A DNA stretch of 10,316 bases from a virus: UHGV virus genome UHGV-0214301; one strand, written 5' to 3'. The notes beneath the pieces are model-generated. The model worked only from the letters and a program-made list of their open reading frames with translations, was not told where the DNA came from and did no database searches. The position numbers and the translations under genes were made by a program. Shown piece by piece: positions 2,210 through 10,316 of this stretch. How positions within the stretch are numbered: position 1 is the first letter of the stretch; each line of letters begins with the position of its first letter.

Positions 2210-3364
2210 ATGCTGCCTAATCAATCAGTTTTACTTATCTGGATGTTTGTGTTGATGACCGCTATCATTGTTTTATTCTCCACGCAACAATTTAATTTCT
2301 TGGACAAGGATGTGAAATACCGAAATGAGCAGATAGATGGTCTCCGTTTTTTCTTATCAATATTTGTTGTGTTTCATCATTATGTGTTGTCTGAATCATA
2401 TTTTTTCGGCTCAGGATGGACATATGATGCAATCAAAGAGTATCCAGTTAACCAAGTTATTGGTAGATATGGGGTTTCCTTATTTTTCATGATCTCTGGA
2501 TTCTTGTTTTGCAATATTAAATCAAGCGCTAGAGATTGGTTTGTTTTTTATATAAAAAGATTCTTCAGGATAGCGCCTTTATTTACTTTATCATCTTGCG
2601 TTTGTATATCTTTAGCCTTTTTTTTATCACAAAATCCGTCAACATCAGACATATCACTAAAGAGCCTCGCCTATTGGTTTAATATGGGGTTGTCCATGAC
2701 TAAACCAGATATATTTAGTTTGCAAAACTCAAGTTTAATTAACGCTTCTGTAACTTGGACTTTGTACTGGGAATGGGGTTTTTATTTTTCACTGCCATTT
2801 GTATTATTTCTAAAATCAAAGTGGTGTGGGCTATCATTGTCTATCAGTATTATCTTTTTATGTGTTTTTATTTACGCAGATATTAATTCATTCAATGCAA
2901 CGCTCATTTCCTTCTTTTCTATAGGGTTTCTCTGCGCAGAGTTAACAAAAATAATTTCGCTATCTGTGCGAACTTGTAATGTGCTTATTGTTTTTGGGGG
3001 GGTGTTCTGCATTTTTATCGTGGATGATCCATATACAATCTTCAGTATTCCAGGTGTTGGTCTGATTTTTTTTGCTATATCAATGGGCGGAGATTTTTTT
3101 GGTTTATTAAAAATGAAAGGTGTTAGAAGACTTGGTGAAATAACATATAGTACTTATATGTTGCATGGAATTTTTCTCTATGTTCTAAATTTTTTTATTT
3201 CTCCTAATATAAGCAAACAGACATACATGTTGTTGTCGAGCTTTACTATCTTGCTTATTCTAATAATATCTTCATTTACATTTTATGTAATAGAAGCCCC
3301 ATTAAATAAATTAGGTTCTCAAATCGCCACTCGTATGCTTAAGACACATTTGAAGAGTCATTAA
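2210..3364 (+). CDS. Acyltransferase family 3 (OafA/Oac-like) integral membrane protein; probable surface-polysaccharide/LPS O-acyltransferase carried as cargo
   Basis: 384-aa ORF, hydrophobic throughout with multiple predicted membrane-spanning segments. It carries the AT3 hallmarks as I recognise them: an N-terminal R-x-IDGLR-x(10)-H motif (RNEQIDGLRFFLSIFVVFHH), GVSLFFMISGFLF, and a C-terminal ITYSTYMLH plus FYVIEAPLNKLG. About 30% GC on counted lines, sharply lower than the flanking tail genes. No fused SGNH domain. Start codon not certain (an internal Met lies at residue 17). Confidence 0.85.
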   Translation: MLPNQSVLLIWMFVLMTAIIVLFSTQQFNFLDKDVKYRNEQIDGLRFFLSIFVVFHHYVLSESYFFGSGWTYDAIKEYPVNQVIGRYGVSLFFMISGFLFCNIKSSARDWFVFYIKRFFRIAPLFTLSSCVCISLAFFLSQNPSTSDISLKSLAYWFNMGLSMTKPDIFSLQNSSLINASVTWTLYWEWGFYFSLPFVLFLKSKWCGLSLSISIIFLCVFIYADINSFNATLISFFSIGFLCAELTKIISLSVRTCNVLIVFGGVFCIFIVDDPYTIFSIPGVGLIFFAISMGGDFFGLLKMKGVRRLGEITYSTYMLHGIFLYVLNFFISPNISKQTYMLLSSFTILLILIISSFTFYVIEAPLNKLGSQIATRMLKTHLKSH

Positions 3365-3759: not shown

Positions 3760-4950
3760 ATGAGTGACTATCATCACGGCGTGCAGGTGCTGGAGATTAA
3801 CGACGGCACCCGCGTCATTTCCACCGTATCCACCGCCATTGTTGGCATGGTCTGCACGGCCAGCGATGCGGATGCGGAAACCTTCCCCCTCAATAAACCT
3901 GTGCTGATTACCAATGTGCAGAGCGCAATTGCAAAGGCCGGTAAAAAAGGCACGCTGGCGGCATCGTTGCAGGCCATCGCTGACCAGTCAAAACCGGTCA
4001 CCGTTGTCGTGCGCGTGGAAGACGGCACCGGTGATGACGAGGAAACGAAACTCGCGCAGACCGTTTCCAATATCATCGGCACCACCGACGAAAACGGTCA
4101 GTACACCGGACTGAAAGCCCTGCTGGCGGCGGAGTCGGTAACCGGTGTTAAACCGCGTATTCTCGGTGTGCCGGGACTGGACACCAAAGAGGTGGCTGTT
4201 GCACTGGCATCAGTCTGTCAGAAGCTGCGCGCTTTCGGGTATATCAGCGCATGGGGCTGTAAGACCATTTCCGAGGTGAAAGCCTACCGCCAGAATTTCA
4301 GCCAGCGTGAGCTGATGGTCATCTGGCCGGATTTCCTCGCATGGGATACGGTCACCAGTACCACCGCCACCGCGTATGCCACCGCCCGTGCGCTGGGTCT
4401 GCGCGCTAAAATCGACCAGGAGCAGGGCTGGCATAAAACGCTGTCCAACGTCGGGGTGAACGGTGTTACCGGCATCAGCGCATCCGTCTTCTGGGATTTG
4501 CAGGAGTCCGGCACCGATGCTGACCTGCTTAACGAGTCAGGCGTCACTACGCTGATTCGCCGCGACGGTTTCCGATTCTGGGGTAACCGTACCTGCTCTG
4601 ATGACCCGCTGTTCCTCTTTGAAAACTATACCCGCACCGCGCAGGTGCTGGCCGACACGATGGCTGAGGCGCACATGTGGGCGGTGGACAAGCCCATCAC
4701 CGCAACGCTGATTCGCGACATCGTTGACGGCATCAATGCCAAATTCCGTGAGCTGAAAACAAACGGCTATATCGTGGATGCGACCTGCTGGTTCAGCGAA
4801 GAATCCAACGATGCGGAAACCCTCAAGGCCGGAAAACTGTATATCGACTACGACTATACACCGGTGCCTCCTCTTGAAAACCTGACCCTGCGCCAGCGTA
4901 TTACCGATAAATACCTGGCAAATCTGGTCACCTCGGTTAACAGCAATTAA
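3760..4950 (+). CDS. FI: Contractile tail sheath protein
   Basis: 396-aa ORF, the same length as P2 gpFI as I recall, first gene of the FI-FII-E-T-U-D order. GGAG Shine-Dalgarno about 9 nt upstream. High-GC codon usage like the neighbouring tail genes. Confidence 0.93.
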   Translation: MSDYHHGVQVLEINDGTRVISTVSTAIVGMVCTASDADAETFPLNKPVLITNVQSAIAKAGKKGTLAASLQAIADQSKPVTVVVRVEDGTGDDEETKLAQTVSNIIGTTDENGQYTGLKALLAAESVTGVKPRILGVPGLDTKEVAVALASVCQKLRAFGYISAWGCKTISEVKAYRQNFSQRELMVIWPDFLAWDTVTSTTATAYATARALGLRAKIDQEQGWHKTLSNVGVNGVTGISASVFWDLQESGTDADLLNESGVTTLIRRDGFRFWGNRTCSDDPLFLFENYTRTAQVLADTMAEAHMWAVDKPITATLIRDIVDGINAKFRELKTNGYIVDATCWFSEESNDAETLKAGKLYIDYDYTPVPPLENLTLRQRITDKYLANLVTSVNSN

Positions 4951-4962
4951 GGAGCCTGACCG

Positions 4963-5481
4963 ATGGCAATGCCGCGCAAACTCAAGTTAATGAACGTCTT
5001 TCTGAACGGCTACAGCTATCAGGGCGTCGCGAAGTCCGTCACGCTGCCAAAACTGACCCGTAAGCTCGAAAACTATCGCGGTGCGGGGATGAACGGCAGC
5101 GCACCGGTAGACCTCGGCCTTGATGACGATGCGCTGTCAATGGAGTGGTCGCTCGGGGGCTTCCCGGATTCGGTTATCTGGGAGCTTTACGCCGCAACCG
5201 GTGTGGATGCTGTGCCGATTCGTTTTGCAGGCTCTTACCAGCGTGACGATACCGGCGAAACGGTGGCCGTCGAAGTGGTCATGCGTGGACGTCAGAAAGA
5301 AATCGACACCGGCGAGGGTAAACAGGGAGAAGACACTGAGTCGAAAATCTCCGTGGTCTGCACCTATTTCCGGCTGACGATGGACGGTAAGGAGCTGGTC
5401 GAAATCGACACCATCAACATGATTGAGAAGGTGAACGGCGTCGACCGGCTGGAGCAACACCGCCGCAATATCGGCCTGTGA
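4963..5481 (+). CDS. FII: Tail tube protein
   Basis: 172-aa ORF, the length of P2 gpFII, 12 nt after the FI stop, preceded by AAGGAG. Confidence 0.93.
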   Translation: MAMPRKLKLMNVFLNGYSYQGVAKSVTLPKLTRKLENYRGAGMNGSAPVDLGLDDDALSMEWSLGGFPDSVIWELYAATGVDAVPIRFAGSYQRDDTGETVAVEVVMRGRQKEIDTGEGKQGEDTESKISVVCTYFRLTMDGKELVEIDTINMIEKVNGVDRLEQHRRNIGL

Positions 5482-5537: not shown

Positions 5538-5813
5538 ATGAACAAAGAAAATGTGATTACCCTGGACAATCCGGTCAAGCGTGGTGAGCAGGTCATCGAA
5601 CAGGTCACGCTGATGAAACCCAGTGCCGGGACGCTGCGCGGTGTCAGTCTGGCTGCGGTCGCAAACTCCGAAGTTGATGCACTAATTAAGGTGTTGCCGC
5701 GCATGACGGCACCGATGCTGACCGAGCAGGAAGTTGCCGCACTGGAACTGCCTGACCTTGTGGCGCTGGCCGGTAAGGTGGTCGGTTTTTTGTCGCCGAA
5801 CTCGGTGCAGTAA
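5538..5813 (+). CDS. E: Tail assembly chaperone E (zero-frame product)
   Basis: 91-aa ORF between the tube and tape-measure genes, the length of P2 gpE. It contains the slippery heptamer near its 3' end. Confidence 0.88.
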   Translation: MNKENVITLDNPVKRGEQVIEQVTLMKPSAGTLRGVSLAAVANSEVDALIKVLPRMTAPMLTEQEVAALELPDLVALAGKVVGFLSPNSVQ

Positions 5814-5965
5814 CGTTCCCGAAAAATCTCTCGGTCGATGACCTGATGGCGGATGTGGCAGTGATATTTCACTGGCCGCCATCAGAACTGTATCCCATGA
5901 GCCTGACCGAACTCATCACATGGCGCGAAAAGGCGCTCCGGCGAAGCGGAAACACGAATGAGTAA
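5538..5965 (+). CDS. E+E': Tail assembly chaperone E+E' (-1 frameshift fusion; 85 aa zero frame + 57 aa in -1 frame)
   Basis: Slipping at 5786-5792 and continuing in the -1 frame gives ...GFLVAELGAVTFPKNLSVDDLMADVAVIFHWPPSELYPMSLTELITWREKALRRSGNTNE-stop. The total is 142 aa, equal to P2 E+E' as I recall, and the end overlaps the T start at 5958, as in the P2 and lambda G/GT arrangement. Confidence 0.75.
5786..5792 (+). other. Programmed -1 ribosomal frameshift slippery heptamer T TTT TTG
   Basis: The zero-frame codons are TTT (5787-5789) and TTG (5790-5792), fitting the X XXY YYZ pattern. The -1 frame is open from here to TAA at 5963-5965. Confidence 0.75.
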
Positions 5966-8405
5966 CAATGTAAAATTACAGGTATTGCTCAGGGCTGTTG
6001 ACCAGGCATCCCGCCCGTTTAAATCCATCCGCACAGCGAGCAAATCGCTGTCGGGGGATATCCGGGAAACACAAAAATCACTGCGAGAGCTGAACGGTCA
6101 GGCATCCCGTATTGAGGGATTTCGCAAGACAAGTGCACAGCTCGCCGTGACTGGTCATGCACTTGAAAAGGCTCGGCAGGAAGCCGAAGCCCTTACCACA
6201 CAGTTTAAAAACACCGAACGTCCGACCCGTGCTCAGGCGAAAGTGCTGGAGTCCGCGAAGCGTGCGGCGGAGGACTTACAGGCGAAATATAACCGCCTGA
6301 CGGATTCCGTTAAACGCCAGCAGCGGGAACTGGCCGTTGTGGGAATTAATACCCGCAATCTTGCACGTGATGAGCAGGGACTGAAAAACCGTATCAGTGA
6401 AACCACCGCACAGCTTAACCGTCAGCGTGACGCGCTGGCGCGTGTCAGTGCGCAACAGGCAAAACTTAACGCAGTAAAACAGCGTTATCAGGCAGGCAAG
6501 GAACTGGCCGGAAATATGGCCTCAGTGGGCGCTGCCGGTGTGGGGATTGCGGCGGCGGGAACGATGGCCGGAGTTAAGTTGCTGACGCCCGGTTATGAGT
6601 TTGCGCAGAAAAACTCAGAATTGCAGGCCGTGCTCGGTGTGGCAAAAGATTCCGCCGAAATGGCCGCGCTCCGCAAGCAGGCGCGCCAGCTCGGCGATAA
6701 TACCGCCGCCTCGGCGGATGATGCAGCCGGTGCGCAGATTATCATTGCGAAAGCGGGTGGAGATGTTGATGCCATTCAGGCGGCAACGCCGGTCACGCTG
6801 AATATGGCGCTGGCGAACCGTCGCACGATGGAAGAAAACGCCGCCCTGCTGATGGGGATGAAATCCGCCTTTCAGCTTTCAAACGATAAGGTCGCTCATA
6901 TCGGGGATGTTCTCTCCATGACGATGAACAAAACCGCCGCCGATTTTGACGGCATGAGCGATGCGCTGACCTATGCCGCACCTGTGGCAAAAAATGCCGG
7001 TGTCAGCATTGAAGAAACCGCCGCAATGGTCGGGGCGCTGCATGATGCAAAAATCACAGGCTCAATGGCGGGAACGGGAAGCCGTGCCGTGTTAAGCCGC
7101 CTGCAGGCACCGACGGGAAAAGCATGGGATGCACTCAAAGAGCTTGGTGTGAAAACCTCAGACAGTAAGGGAAACACCCGACCAGTATTTACCATTCTGA
7201 AAGAAATGCAGGCCAGCTTTGAGAAAAACCGGCTCGGTACTGCCCAGCAGGCTGAATACATGAAAACCATTTTCGGGGAGGAGGCCAGTTCAGCCGCCGC
7301 CGTGCTGATGACTGCCGCCTCAACCGGAAAGCTGGACAAACTGACCGCTGCGTTTAAAGCCTCAGACGGAAAGACCGCAGAGCTGGTAAATATCATGCAG
7401 GACAACCTCGGCGGTGACTTTAAGGAGTTTCAGTCCGCTTATGAGGCGGTGGGGACTGACCTGTTTGACCAGCAGGAAGGCGCACTGCGTAAGCTCACGC
7501 AGACGGCCACAAAGTATGTGTTAAAACTCGACGGCTGGATCCAGAAAAACAAATCACTGGCGTCAACCATCGGCCTTATTGTCGGTGGTGCACTGGCGCT
7601 TACTGGCATCATCGGTGCAATTGGTCTTGTAGCCTGGCCGGTTATCACCGGCATTAATGCCATCATCGCGGCAGCAGGCGCAATGGGGGCAATCTTCACG
7701 ACGGTTGGCAGTGCTGTTATGACGGCCATCGGGGCGATTAGCTGGCCGATTGTGGCTGTGGTGGCCGCCATTGTCGCCGGGGCGTTGCTTATCCGTAAAT
7801 ACTGGGAGCCTGTCAGCGCATTCTTTGGCGGTGTGGTTGAAGGGCTGAAAGCGGCATTTGCGCCAGTGGGGGAACTGTTCACGCCACTTAAGCCGGTGTT
7901 TGACTGGCTGGGTGAAAAGTTACAGGCCGCGTGGCAGTGGTTTAAAAACCTGATTGCCCCGGTCAAAGCTACCCAGGACACCCTGAACCGTTGCCGTGAC
8001 ACGGGCGTCATGTTCGGGCAGGCACTGGCTGACGCGCTGATGCTGCCGCTTAATGCGTTCAACAAACTGCGCAGTGGTATTGACTGGGTACTGGAAAAAC
8101 TCGGTGTTATCAACAAAGAGTCAGACACACTTGACCAGACCGCCGCCAGAACTCAAGCCGCCACGTATGGCAGCGGTGGTTATATTCCGGCGACCAGCTC
8201 TTATGCAGGTTATCAGGCTTATCAGCCGGTCACGGCACCGGCTGGCCGCTCTTATGTGGACCAGAGTAAAAACGAATATCACATCAGCCTGACGGGTGGT
8301 ACTGCACCGGGGACACAGCTTGACCGCCAGTTACAGGATGCGCTCGAAAAATACGAGCGGGATAAACGTGCGCGCGCCCGTGCCAGCATGATGCATGACG
8401 GTTAA
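5958..8405 (+). CDS. T: Tail tape measure protein
   Basis: 815-aa ORF, the length of P2 gpT. The N-terminal region is rich in Q/R/A/L (coiled-coil-like), and there is a long Gly/Ala/Ile-rich hydrophobic segment (LASTIGLIVGGALALTGIIGAIGLVAWPVITG...), typical of tape measure proteins. Position follows E/E'. Confidence 0.93.
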   Translation: MSNNVKLQVLLRAVDQASRPFKSIRTASKSLSGDIRETQKSLRELNGQASRIEGFRKTSAQLAVTGHALEKARQEAEALTTQFKNTERPTRAQAKVLESAKRAAEDLQAKYNRLTDSVKRQQRELAVVGINTRNLARDEQGLKNRISETTAQLNRQRDALARVSAQQAKLNAVKQRYQAGKELAGNMASVGAAGVGIAAAGTMAGVKLLTPGYEFAQKNSELQAVLGVAKDSAEMAALRKQARQLGDNTAASADDAAGAQIIIAKAGGDVDAIQAATPVTLNMALANRRTMEENAALLMGMKSAFQLSNDKVAHIGDVLSMTMNKTAADFDGMSDALTYAAPVAKNAGVSIEETAAMVGALHDAKITGSMAGTGSRAVLSRLQAPTGKAWDALKELGVKTSDSKGNTRPVFTILKEMQASFEKNRLGTAQQAEYMKTIFGEEASSAAAVLMTAASTGKLDKLTAAFKASDGKTAELVNIMQDNLGGDFKEFQSAYEAVGTDLFDQQEGALRKLTQTATKYVLKLDGWIQKNKSLASTIGLIVGGALALTGIIGAIGLVAWPVITGINAIIAAAGAMGAIFTTVGSAVMTAIGAISWPIVAVVAAIVAGALLIRKYWEPVSAFFGGVVEGLKAAFAPVGELFTPLKPVFDWLGEKLQAAWQWFKNLIAPVKATQDTLNRCRDTGVMFGQALADALMLPLNAFNKLRSGIDWVLEKLGVINKESDTLDQTAARTQAATYGSGGYIPATSSYAGYQAYQPVTAPAGRSYVDQSKNEYHISLTGGTAPGTQLDRQLQDALEKYERDKRARARASMMHDG

Positions 8406-8419
8406 GGAGGTGACGAAAA

Positions 8420-8899
8420 ATGATGCTCGCGTTAGGTATGTTTGTTTTTATGCGCCAGACGCTGCCACACCAGACCATGCAGCGTGAATCAGATTATCGC
8501 TGGCCGTCAAATTCCCGTATCGGTAAACGGGATGCCTACCAGTTTCTCGGCGTTGGTGAGGAAAACATGACGCTTGCCGGTGTGCTTTATCCCGAACTGA
8601 CCGGCGGCAAGCTGACGATGACCACGCTCAGACTGATGGCAGAGGAAGGCCGGGCGTGGCCGTTGCTGGATGGCACAGGCATGATTTACGGCATGTATGT
8701 CATCAGCAGGGTGAGTGAAACAGGGAGTATTTTCTTTGCAGACGGCACACCCCGGAAAATTGATTTTACGCTGTCACTCACCCGCGTGGATGAATCACTG
8801 GCCGCGCTTTATGGCGATATCGGTAAACAGGCAGAATCGCTCATCGGTAAGGCTGGCAGTATGGCGACTAAATTCACGGGGATGACGGGGGCGGAATAA
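8420..8899 (+). CDS. U: Tail protein U (tail tube terminator/baseplate-proximal protein)
   Basis: 159-aa ORF, the length of P2 gpU, with a strong AAGGAGG Shine-Dalgarno at 8404-8410. The stop overlaps the D start as TAATG. Confidence 0.88.
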   Translation: MMLALGMFVFMRQTLPHQTMQRESDYRWPSNSRIGKRDAYQFLGVGEENMTLAGVLYPELTGGKLTMTTLRLMAEEGRAWPLLDGTGMIYGMYVISRVSETGSIFFADGTPRKIDFTLSLTRVDESLAALYGDIGKQAESLIGKAGSMATKFTGMTGAE

Positions 8900-10062
8900 T
8901 GCTGGATGCGCTGACATTTGATGCAGGCAGTACGCTGACGCCGGATTACATGCTGATGCTCGACAGCAGGGATATTACCGGCAATATCAGCGACCGTCTG
9001 ATGAGCATGACCCTGACGGATAACCGGGGCTTTGAGGCTGACCAGCTTGATATTGAACTGAACGATGCCGACGGGCAGGTCGGGCTGCCGGTTCGTGGCG
9101 CTGTCCTGACGGTGTATATCGGCTGGAAAGGTTTTGCCCTGGTATGCAAAGGGAAATTTACCGTTGATGAGGTTGAACACCGGGGCGCGCCGGATGTGGT
9201 TACCATCCGCGCCCGGAGTGCAGATTTTCGCGGGACGCTCAATTCCCGCCGGGAAGGCTCCTGGCATGACACCACGCTCGGTGCGATTGTTGAGGTGATA
9301 GCCTCCCGTAACAGGCTGGAAGCCAGTGTCGCGCCGTCACTGGCCGGAATTAAAATCCCGCACATCGACCAGTCGCAGGAGTCCGATGCGAAATTCCTGA
9401 CCCGTCTTGCTGAACGCAACGGCGGTGAGGTGTCGGTAAAAATGGGAAAATTGTTGTTTCTCAAAGCGGGGCAGGGGGTGACGGCCAGTGGTAAAAAAAT
9501 CCCGCAGGTCACCATAACCCGCAGCGACGGCGACCGCCATCATTTTGCGATTGCTGACCGTGGAGCCTATACCGGCGTAACGGCAAAGTGGTTACACACC
9601 AAAGACCCGAAGCCACAAAAGCAGAAGGTAAAACTGAAACGCAAAAAGAAAGAGAAACACCTGCGCGCACTGGAGCACCCGAAAGCGAAACCGGTCACGC
9701 AGAAGAAAGCGCCAAAAGTACCGGAAGCGCGCGAAGGTGAATACATGGCAGGTGAGGCTGACAACGTTTTTGCCCTGACCACGGTATATGCCACGAAAGC
9801 GCAGGCCATGCGCGCCGCTCAGGCGAAGTGGGATAAGCTGCAACGGGGCGTTGCGGAGTTCTCCATCAGTCTGGCTACTGGTCGGGCAGATATTTACACG
9901 GAAACGCCGGTCAGAGTATCAGGCTTTAAGCGCGTCATAGACGAGCAGGACTGGACAATCACTAAGGTGACACATTTTCTGAATAATAGCGGCTTCACGA
10001 CGTCCCTGGAGCTTGAGGTCAGGCTTTCTGATGTGGAGTACGAAACAGAAGATGATGAGTGA
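8899..10062 (+). CDS. D: Tail protein D (late gene D, tail/baseplate hub family)
   Basis: 387-aa ORF, the length of P2 gpD, translationally coupled to U and last gene before ogr. Contains a lysine-rich basic segment (KDPKPQKQKVKLKRKKKEKHLRALEHPKAKPVTQKKAPK). Confidence 0.88.
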   Translation: MLDALTFDAGSTLTPDYMLMLDSRDITGNISDRLMSMTLTDNRGFEADQLDIELNDADGQVGLPVRGAVLTVYIGWKGFALVCKGKFTVDEVEHRGAPDVVTIRARSADFRGTLNSRREGSWHDTTLGAIVEVIASRNRLEASVAPSLAGIKIPHIDQSQESDAKFLTRLAERNGGEVSVKMGKLLFLKAGQGVTASGKKIPQVTITRSDGDRHHFAIADRGAYTGVTAKWLHTKDPKPQKQKVKLKRKKKEKHLRALEHPKAKPVTQKKAPKVPEAREGEYMAGEADNVFALTTVYATKAQAMRAAQAKWDKLQRGVAEFSISLATGRADIYTETPVRVSGFKRVIDEQDWTITKVTHFLNNSGFTTSLELEVRLSDVEYETEDDE

Positions 10063-10080: not shown

Positions 10081-10109
10081 TTGTTTTATAAGGATAAATT
10101 AACTAAAAT
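10081..10109 (+). promoter_or_regulatory. Putative sigma-70 promoter of ogr
   Basis: TTGTTT (10081-10086), a 17-bp spacer, then TAAAAT (10104-10109). The predicted transcript start is about 27 nt upstream of the ATG at 10144, which has an AGGTG Shine-Dalgarno 7 nt upstream. Confidence 0.4.
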
Positions 10110-10143
10110 GGCACCATCAACAAAACCGGAAGAGGTGCTCGCG

Positions 10144-10316
10144 ATGTTTCATTGTCCTTTATGCCAGCATGCCGCACATGCGCGTACAAGTCGCTATATC
10201 ACTGACACGACAAAAGAGCGTTATCACCAGTGTCAGAACGTGAATTGCAGCGCCACGTTCATCACTTATGAGTCGGTACAGCGATACATCGTGAAGCCGG
10301 GAGAAGTCCACGCCGT
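10144..10316 (+). CDS. ogr: Late transcription activator Ogr (Cys4 zinc finger), 3' end beyond the window
   Basis: Translation MFHCPLCQHAAHARTSRYITDTTKERYHQCQNVNCSATFITYESVQRYIVKPGEVHA... matches P2 Ogr as I remember it, including the CPLC...CQNVNC zinc-binding cysteines. An in-frame ATG at 10108 would add 12 residues but lies inside the predicted -10 element, so 10144 is preferred. Confidence 0.9.
   Translation, partial: MFHCPLCQHAAHARTSRYITDTTKERYHQCQNVNCSATFITYESVQRYIVKPGEVHA

Follow-up and report, generated by a model that had tools for sequence, protein, structure and literature searches.

The locus considered here raises the question of what a stretch of exceptional lysine content is doing in the middle of a phage tail protein. 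The window, i.e., the whole stretch of DNA that was analysed (10,316 nucleotides of UHGV virus genome UHGV-0214301), was described in an earlier note as carrying such a segment within tail protein D, which might serve as a flexible linker or as a stretch interacting with nucleic acid or membrane. To answer this question, the identity of the protein, the position and predicted structure of the segment, its conservation and distribution, and the roles that can be proposed for it are addressed in turn.

Gene D within a P2-type tail cluster

The window covers the late tail genes of a P2-like phage or prophage, and the following features are relevant to its interpretation.

17-967: tail-fibre gene H, 3' part
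967-1569: fibre-assembly gene G
2210-3364, plus strand: low-GC cargo gene, a 384-aa multi-pass membrane ORF (Pfam Acyl_transf_3, E 1e-26)
3760-4950: sheath gene FI
4963-5481: tube gene FII
5538-5813: chaperone gene E
5958-8405: tape measure gene T (PF10145)
8420-8899: gene U (PF06995)
8899-10062, plus strand: gene D, encoding the baseplate hub protein gpD of 387 aa (Pfam PF05954, P2 identity, AF2 model)
3' of D: ogr, start only (PF04606)

The order FI, FII, E, T, U, D, ogr is that of a contractile-tail cluster and is identical to the order in P2. Two observations concern genes other than D. The cargo gene at 2210-3364, situated between G and FI, has a GC content of 0.30-0.34 vs roughly 0.55 in the flanking tail genes; other non-essential genes occupy this G-FI site in P2, and the gene is probably a lysogenic-conversion cargo gene for a putative LPS/O-antigen acyltransferase. 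Near the other end of the window, the ATG at 10144 has a further in-frame ATG 12 codons ahead of it (10108-10146, plus strand). P2 Ogr starts at the 10144 ATG (MFHCPLC...), and in this reading the match to the Ogr_Delta zinc-finger domain begins at residue 3.

The assignment of the ORF to tail protein D, as given in the earlier note, was confirmed. The PF05954 (Phage_GPD) profile matched gpD with 92.6 bits (cut-off 30.1) across residues 51-364, the nucleotide identity of gene D to P2 and relatives is 98%, and the protein differs from the reference P2 gpD (NC_070905.1, YP_010663834.1) by three substitutions, at positions 8, 108, and 133, none of which falls within the lysine-rich segment. Since the segment is identical to that of P2 gpD, the flagged stretch is exactly the reference P2 sequence and, both as DNA and as peptide, is already known. 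It is also widespread, as about 30% of complete E. coli genomes (1,640 of 5,426) contain a 251-base piece across the segment.

Structure prediction points in the same direction. An AF2 model of the gpD monomer based on a diverse alignment of 100 sequences reached a pLDDT of 89.6 and a pTM of 0.86; with no more than 22 close homologues in the alignment, residues 190-387 had come out with a pLDDT below 50. Foldseek matched the model to 6u5h, 3cdd, 9ki1, 1wru, VgrG, and 1k28 (E 1e-23 to 1e-13), and the best structural matches are hubs of contractile injection systems, namely, those of R2 pyocin, MuSo2/Mu gp44, phages P1, Milano, and 7-7-1, VgrG, and T4 gp27. In the model, gpD is predicted to have the hub fold of two tube-like beta-barrel domains and an alpha/beta domain, with this fold intact around the segment. 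On each feature tested, gpD is the P2 gene D product and a member of the Phage_GPD/baseplate hub family with the gp27-VgrG-gp44 fold; the name 'late control gene D' is a misnomer, as gpD is the hub protein. Proteins of the hub family form a trimer that caps the tube and carries the spike, with pseudo-sixfold symmetry.

Several database proteins related to gpD have an unusual make-up. Two of them (P0007 and P0009) are encoded by mosaic gpD genes, in which the N-terminal ~220 residues are of the Klebsiella/Enterobacter type and the remainder, from about residue 222 on and including the basic loop, is identical to P2; these mosaics imply that recombination has taken place within gene D, with breakpoints shortly upstream of the segment. 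Three others (P0003, P0006, and P0012) appear to be fusions of gpD to fragments of sheath (PF04984) or gpV (PF04717), which are most likely assembly or gene-calling artefacts, since each is represented by a single sequence on 1-3 contigs.

Composition and predicted structure of the lysine-rich segment

The segment had been placed at 9592-9735. It is real and lies within ORF 8899-10062, whereas these coordinates, which translate to LHTKD...EARE, begin three codons and end two codons too early. The segment is defined here as follows.

9601-9741, plus strand: lysine-rich peptide KDPKPQKQKVKLKRKKKEKHLRALEHPKAKPVTQKKAPKVPEAREGE, aa 235-281 (15 lysines in 47 residues, net charge +12, pI 10.4)

Besides its 15 K, the segment contains 3 R, 6 P, 5 E, 3 Q, and 1 D. 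That its composition is unlike the remainder of gpD proved correct, as the other 340 residues have a net charge of -9 and a pI of 5.4. The densest 47-residue window of gpD contains 16 K, and none of 20,000 shuffles of the protein reached this number (mean maximum 7.8, highest 14).

At the DNA level, the segment consists of 43% A, 27% G, 25% C, and 5% T, and its AT skew of 0.41 is the maximum of the window. As a description of this DNA, 'A-rich and T-poor' fits better than the A/G-rich of the earlier note. Tandem Repeats Finder (minimum score 30) detected no tandem repeat arrays at 9500-9850, and neither Rfam families nor promoter-like sites were found in or around the segment. A terminator-like hairpin with a T-run is present inside gene D (9502-9524, minus strand), and this count of one is in keeping with shuffles, in which 1.3 are expected. 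Two overlapping reading frames from the ORF list run antisense to the segment:

9567-9809, minus strand: antisense ORF of 80 aa
9592-9843, minus strand: antisense ORF of 83 aa

These ORFs stay open because the minus strand is nearly devoid of A, which is needed in every stop codon. In comparison with FSL SP-004, the differences within the segment number 3, 5, and 17 at codon positions 1, 2, and 3 of the plus-strand frame, and 13 of the 19 changed codons are synonymous (6 non-synonymous). It follows from the codon-position pattern that selection acts on the gpD frame. Genuine genes on the minus strand at 9567-9843 were rejected on both composition and substitution pattern, and the two ORFs are artefacts, in agreement with the earlier note, which had called them spurious. 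A search for a promoter-like site serving them found none.

Recoding and internal initiation were likewise discarded. Ribosomal frameshifting or poly-A sliding was rejected, with a longest A run of 5 and no in-frame X XXY YYZ heptamer; the closest slippery-site candidate, at codons 248-250, reads C AAA AAG, with a C where the pattern demands an A. A Shine-Dalgarno-like AAGGTG occurs 5 nt upstream of the in-frame ATG of Met283 (9730-9747, plus strand), and an internal start at this position was rejected as coincidence, the Met being Leu or Val in ENT90, SopEPhi, and KS5.

When the AF2 model is combined with an alignment of 20 homologues (78-99% identity), over which mean column identities were calculated, the segment and its C-terminal border resolve into five parts.

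9613-9636, plus strand: predicted beta-strand PQKQKVKL, aa 239-246 (DSSP on the AF2 model), with lysines at alternate positions
9637-9657, plus strand: polybasic cluster KRKKKEK, aa 247-253, at which the insertion starts (column identity 0.88)
9658-9693, plus strand: conserved motif HLRALEHPKAKP, aa 254-265 (column identity 0.90)
9694-9723, plus strand: variable K/A/P spacer VTQKKAPKVP, aa 266-275 (column identity 0.60)
9724-9765, plus strand: highly conserved EAREGEYMAGEADN, aa 276-289, leading to core strand 290-297 (column identity 0.96)

Strand 239-246 aligns with the family-wide 'krksvtv' strand and is the last core strand ahead of the insertion. Between it and strand 290-297, residues 247-289 lack DSSP secondary structure in the AF2 monomer and have a pLDDT of 51-73, with the minimum at 254-259, while the flanks exceed 90. 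In a charge-hydropathy analysis, the segment falls on the disordered side (mean hydropathy 0.29 vs a boundary of 0.505; charged fraction 0.51) and the remainder of gpD on the folded side. Both approaches therefore predict the segment to be unstructured, so that the flexibility in the proposal of a flexible linker is retained. The linker part of that proposal is not: most relatives join the two strands with about 6 residues, from which the segment is best read as bulging out of the tight turn that links two neighbouring beta-strands in the second tube-like barrel, and not as a connection between domains.

The composition of the segment bears on one of the proposed functions, i.e., contact with nucleic acid, according to which the loops would reach into the lumen of the hub and, as a gate, retain either the tape measure C-terminus or the leading end of the DNA. 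K/P/A-rich composition resembles that of non-specific DNA-binding tails, and the lysines of strand 239-246 lie on one face. Even so, this role is considered very improbable: phage DNA channels are usually electronegative, the C-terminal 30 residues of the tape measure (KYERDKRARARASMMHDG) are themselves basic, and other Peduoviridae deliver DNA without the loop. Repeat units of the histone-H1-like or AlgP-like type (KPAA/SPKK) are absent from the segment peptide as well, which has isolated PK and KP dipeptides only.

Conservation of the loop and its distribution among hubs

Within P2-like phages, the segment has a mean column identity of 0.83 vs 0.89 for the folded parts, and this conservation is uneven among the sub-blocks. 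In aa 254-265, residues H260, P261, K262, A263, and K264 are invariant in close homologues, and in aa 276-289 invariance extends to 12 of the 14 columns, with a terminal G-x-x-x-N that is found family-wide. Small indels, 1-4 residues long in close homologues, are concentrated in the spacer at 266-275. Two conserved motifs, HLRALxHPKAK and EAREGEYMAGE, thus flank a variable lysine/alanine/proline spacer, and the earlier description of the segment as low complexity does not hold if it is taken to mean featureless, as the two sub-blocks reach 0.90 and 0.96 against 0.89 in the folded body. Farther afield, five distant clusters (41-49% identity) have HPxAK at the corresponding alignment position, in loops of similar length with a net charge of 0 to +5. 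Motif and length are therefore conserved in the wider clade, and the strong charge is a trait of the P2-type branch.

These patterns may be set against the simplest explanation, namely, that the turn is an indel hot spot at which a functionless loop has expanded neutrally. The free variation of spacer 266-275 fits such tolerated filler, as do the unrelated expansions of 20-178 residues at this turn elsewhere in the family and the lack of any expansion in most lineages. Blocks 254-265 and 276-289, however, equal or exceed the folded body in conservation, substitutions are mainly synonymous, and HPxAK persists in clusters with an overall identity of 41-49%, so that neutral filler is regarded as unlikely. 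Instead, the insertion is kept by purifying selection in P2-like phages, as judged from the aligned sequences.

The distribution of the loop was surveyed in 113 sequences, namely, the query and 112 full-length representatives of 50%-identity clusters, with the loop taken as the distance from Trp231 to Val290. Its length has a median of 19 residues, a 10th percentile of 18, a 90th percentile of 57, and a range of 4-178, and is 58 in the query. A K/R run of at least 4 occurs at the loop in 12 of the 113 sequences (the query and 11 of the 112 representatives). Among named phages, the following forms were encountered.

P2, FSL SP-004, and ENT90: long loop form
SopEPhi and KS5: loop of about 20 residues, with VKRRRK
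Pseudomonas phage Dobby and Burkholderia phage phiE094: without the loop
Mannheimia phage: long, unrelated K/G-rich loop

The turn is thus a recurrent insertion hot spot in contractile-tail hubs. In a pairwise alignment to the R2 pyocin hub, query residues 14-231 and 295-371 align, and query 232-294 faces pyocin 217-245; the family profile alignment places a 6-residue pyocin insert at the same point as the P2 loop. The earlier note had reasoned that the segment would be ordinary if it were fully conserved and structured in solved homologues. Instead, its length varies and it is missing from the one solved close homologue, the R2 pyocin hub. As related phages also do without it, neither the hub fold nor hub function at large appears to require the loop.

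Two further observations were made during the survey. The protein P0008 (339 aa) was tried as a natural loop-deletion variant and rejected, because its deletion covers residues 97-144 and spares the basic loop. In seven homologues (P0191, P0138, P0160, P0161, P0157, P0139, and P0184), 100-178 residues occupy the turn equivalent to 9592-9765 of the window. In these inserts, the strand-helix motif 'xLxxTYxxxxxAxxAAxxEW' seems to be repeated once or twice more, and the second tube-like domain may be partly duplicated in these proteins, one of which (P0161) has a long C-terminal extension as well.

Proposed roles and comparison with known systems

Taken as a class of feature, the segment is of an ordinary kind, i.e., a lineage-specific disordered charged loop at a variable turn, which will not surprise a specialist. 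With moderate confidence, it is read as a lineage-specific excursion of about 40 residues (aa 247-289) that acts as an accessory docking or electrostatic loop in the P2 baseplate hub. The excursion would interrupt a turn in the second of the tube-like beta-barrel domains, following the lysine-lined strand. In the trimer, as extrapolated from the monomer model, the loop would be exposed to solvent and present in three copies, with a total charge of about +30 to +36. It would then function as an accessory tether, of which HLRALxHPKAK and EAREGEYMAGE could dock onto a neighbouring surface, while the lysine clusters could make non-specific electrostatic contacts with acidic surfaces of the baseplate. 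Candidates for such acidic partners are gpJ, gpX, and the C-terminal tail of gpD itself, and the contacts would stabilise the junction of the hub with the wedge or the spike.

10021-10059, plus strand: acidic C-terminal tail RLSDVEYETEDDE, aa 375-387, candidate electrostatic partner (within the most acidic window)

The docking reading is based on the conservation of the motifs independently of charge, on the acidic partners available, and on a weak anticorrelation of charges. Among 12 P2 proteins, mostly of the tail or baseplate, the last 30 residues of gpD (aa 358-387, net -8) form the most acidic 30-residue window; of the P2 proteins examined, gpJ has a net charge of -18 and gpX a pI of 4.4. 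Loop charge and C-tail charge are weakly anticorrelated over the 113 phylogenetically non-independent sequences (rho -0.30, p 0.0015). A further candidate for an acidic partner, the tape measure C-terminus, was rejected, given its basic last 30 residues. Since the set of baseplate genes is identical in phages with and without the loop, a docking role must be either dispensable or lineage-specific.

The second proposed function, contact with the membrane, can be formulated as contact with the cell envelope: once the sheath has contracted and the spike is gone, the hub forms the open tube end, and its three polycationic loops would bind anionic groups of the envelope, be it lipid A, the phosphates of the inner core, or the phosphatidylglycerol and cardiolipin in the inner membrane, and so dock the tube tip for DNA transfer. 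The charge of +12 per chain across 47 residues is the sole argument for interaction with membrane or nucleic acid as such; in the family, longer loops are more basic (rho 0.61 over the 113 sequences), and a review on T4 proposes a terminal pore formed by gp27, with a possible interaction at the cytoplasmic membrane (PMC3004832). Envelope contact is nonetheless unlikely, in view of three observations, namely, that Dobby and phiE094 lack the loop despite hosts with the same kind of envelope, that a search for hydrophobic or amphipathic elements in the segment found none, and that the loops are non-basic in the clusters that keep HPxAK, from which it follows that charge is not the conserved property. 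A stronger version, which is quite improbable, is that the loops make up a 'cationic collar' on the P2 hub, exposed after contraction, and that docking and opening of the tube tip for DNA transfer depend on the binding of this collar to anionic lipids or lipid A; several Peduoviridae lineages would have gained such an element independently at this turn.

The importance of the segment beyond annotation is slight. Still, the HPxAK and EAREGEYMAGE motifs are worth attention when maps of the P2 baseplate are read. The turn is also a plausible site for inserting or removing sequence when P2-type tails or tailocins are engineered, given that its tolerated length in relatives ranges from 0 to over 100 residues. 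If the loop should be needed for membrane docking or for baseplate stability, this would be a small addition to the mechanism of P2 genome delivery.

A literature search, in which the preprint on the cryo-EM structure of the P2 virion (10.64898/2026.09.14.750843) was represented by counts of terms, returned no paper describing the basic loop of gpD; by these counts, the preprint contains gpD 17 times, 'disordered' five times, 'positively charged' once, and 'lysine' not at all. The hub was left unresolved in the paper on Vibrio phage XM1.

Of the known systems, the closest is P2 itself, in which gpD (Peduovirus P2) is the same protein with an identical segment and the same T-U-D-ogr order; the window differs in carrying another cargo gene between G and FI, and nothing relevant differs otherwise. 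The R2 pyocin hub (chains A and C of PDB 6u5h, probably PA0628) is homologous over its full length (phmmer E 1e-45, profile E 3.5e-83, Foldseek E 5e-23), and the hub fold is common to both proteins. However, this protein of 329 aa has a short turn (...VELKNPKAPATAMGEH...) where P2 gpD has about 50 residues, lacks the polybasic cluster, and belongs to a DNA-free particle. Mu gp44 (PDB 1wru, 9ki1) shares with gpD the fold and the role of central trimeric hub, at an identity of about 15% in the structure alignment. T4 gp27 (PDB 1k28) has the same hub architecture (Foldseek E 3e-13) at a sequence identity of about 9%, and carries an insertion at residues 240-306, which is probably part of a folded domain, unlike the basic coil of gpD. 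The second tube-like domain of gp27 is split by this insertion, which belongs to neither of the tube-like domains (PMC3004832). Judged from the order of strands rather than from superposition, the gp27 insertion and the gpD loop are probably located at an equivalent site, which suggests that the turn in gpD faces away from the tube-like torus.
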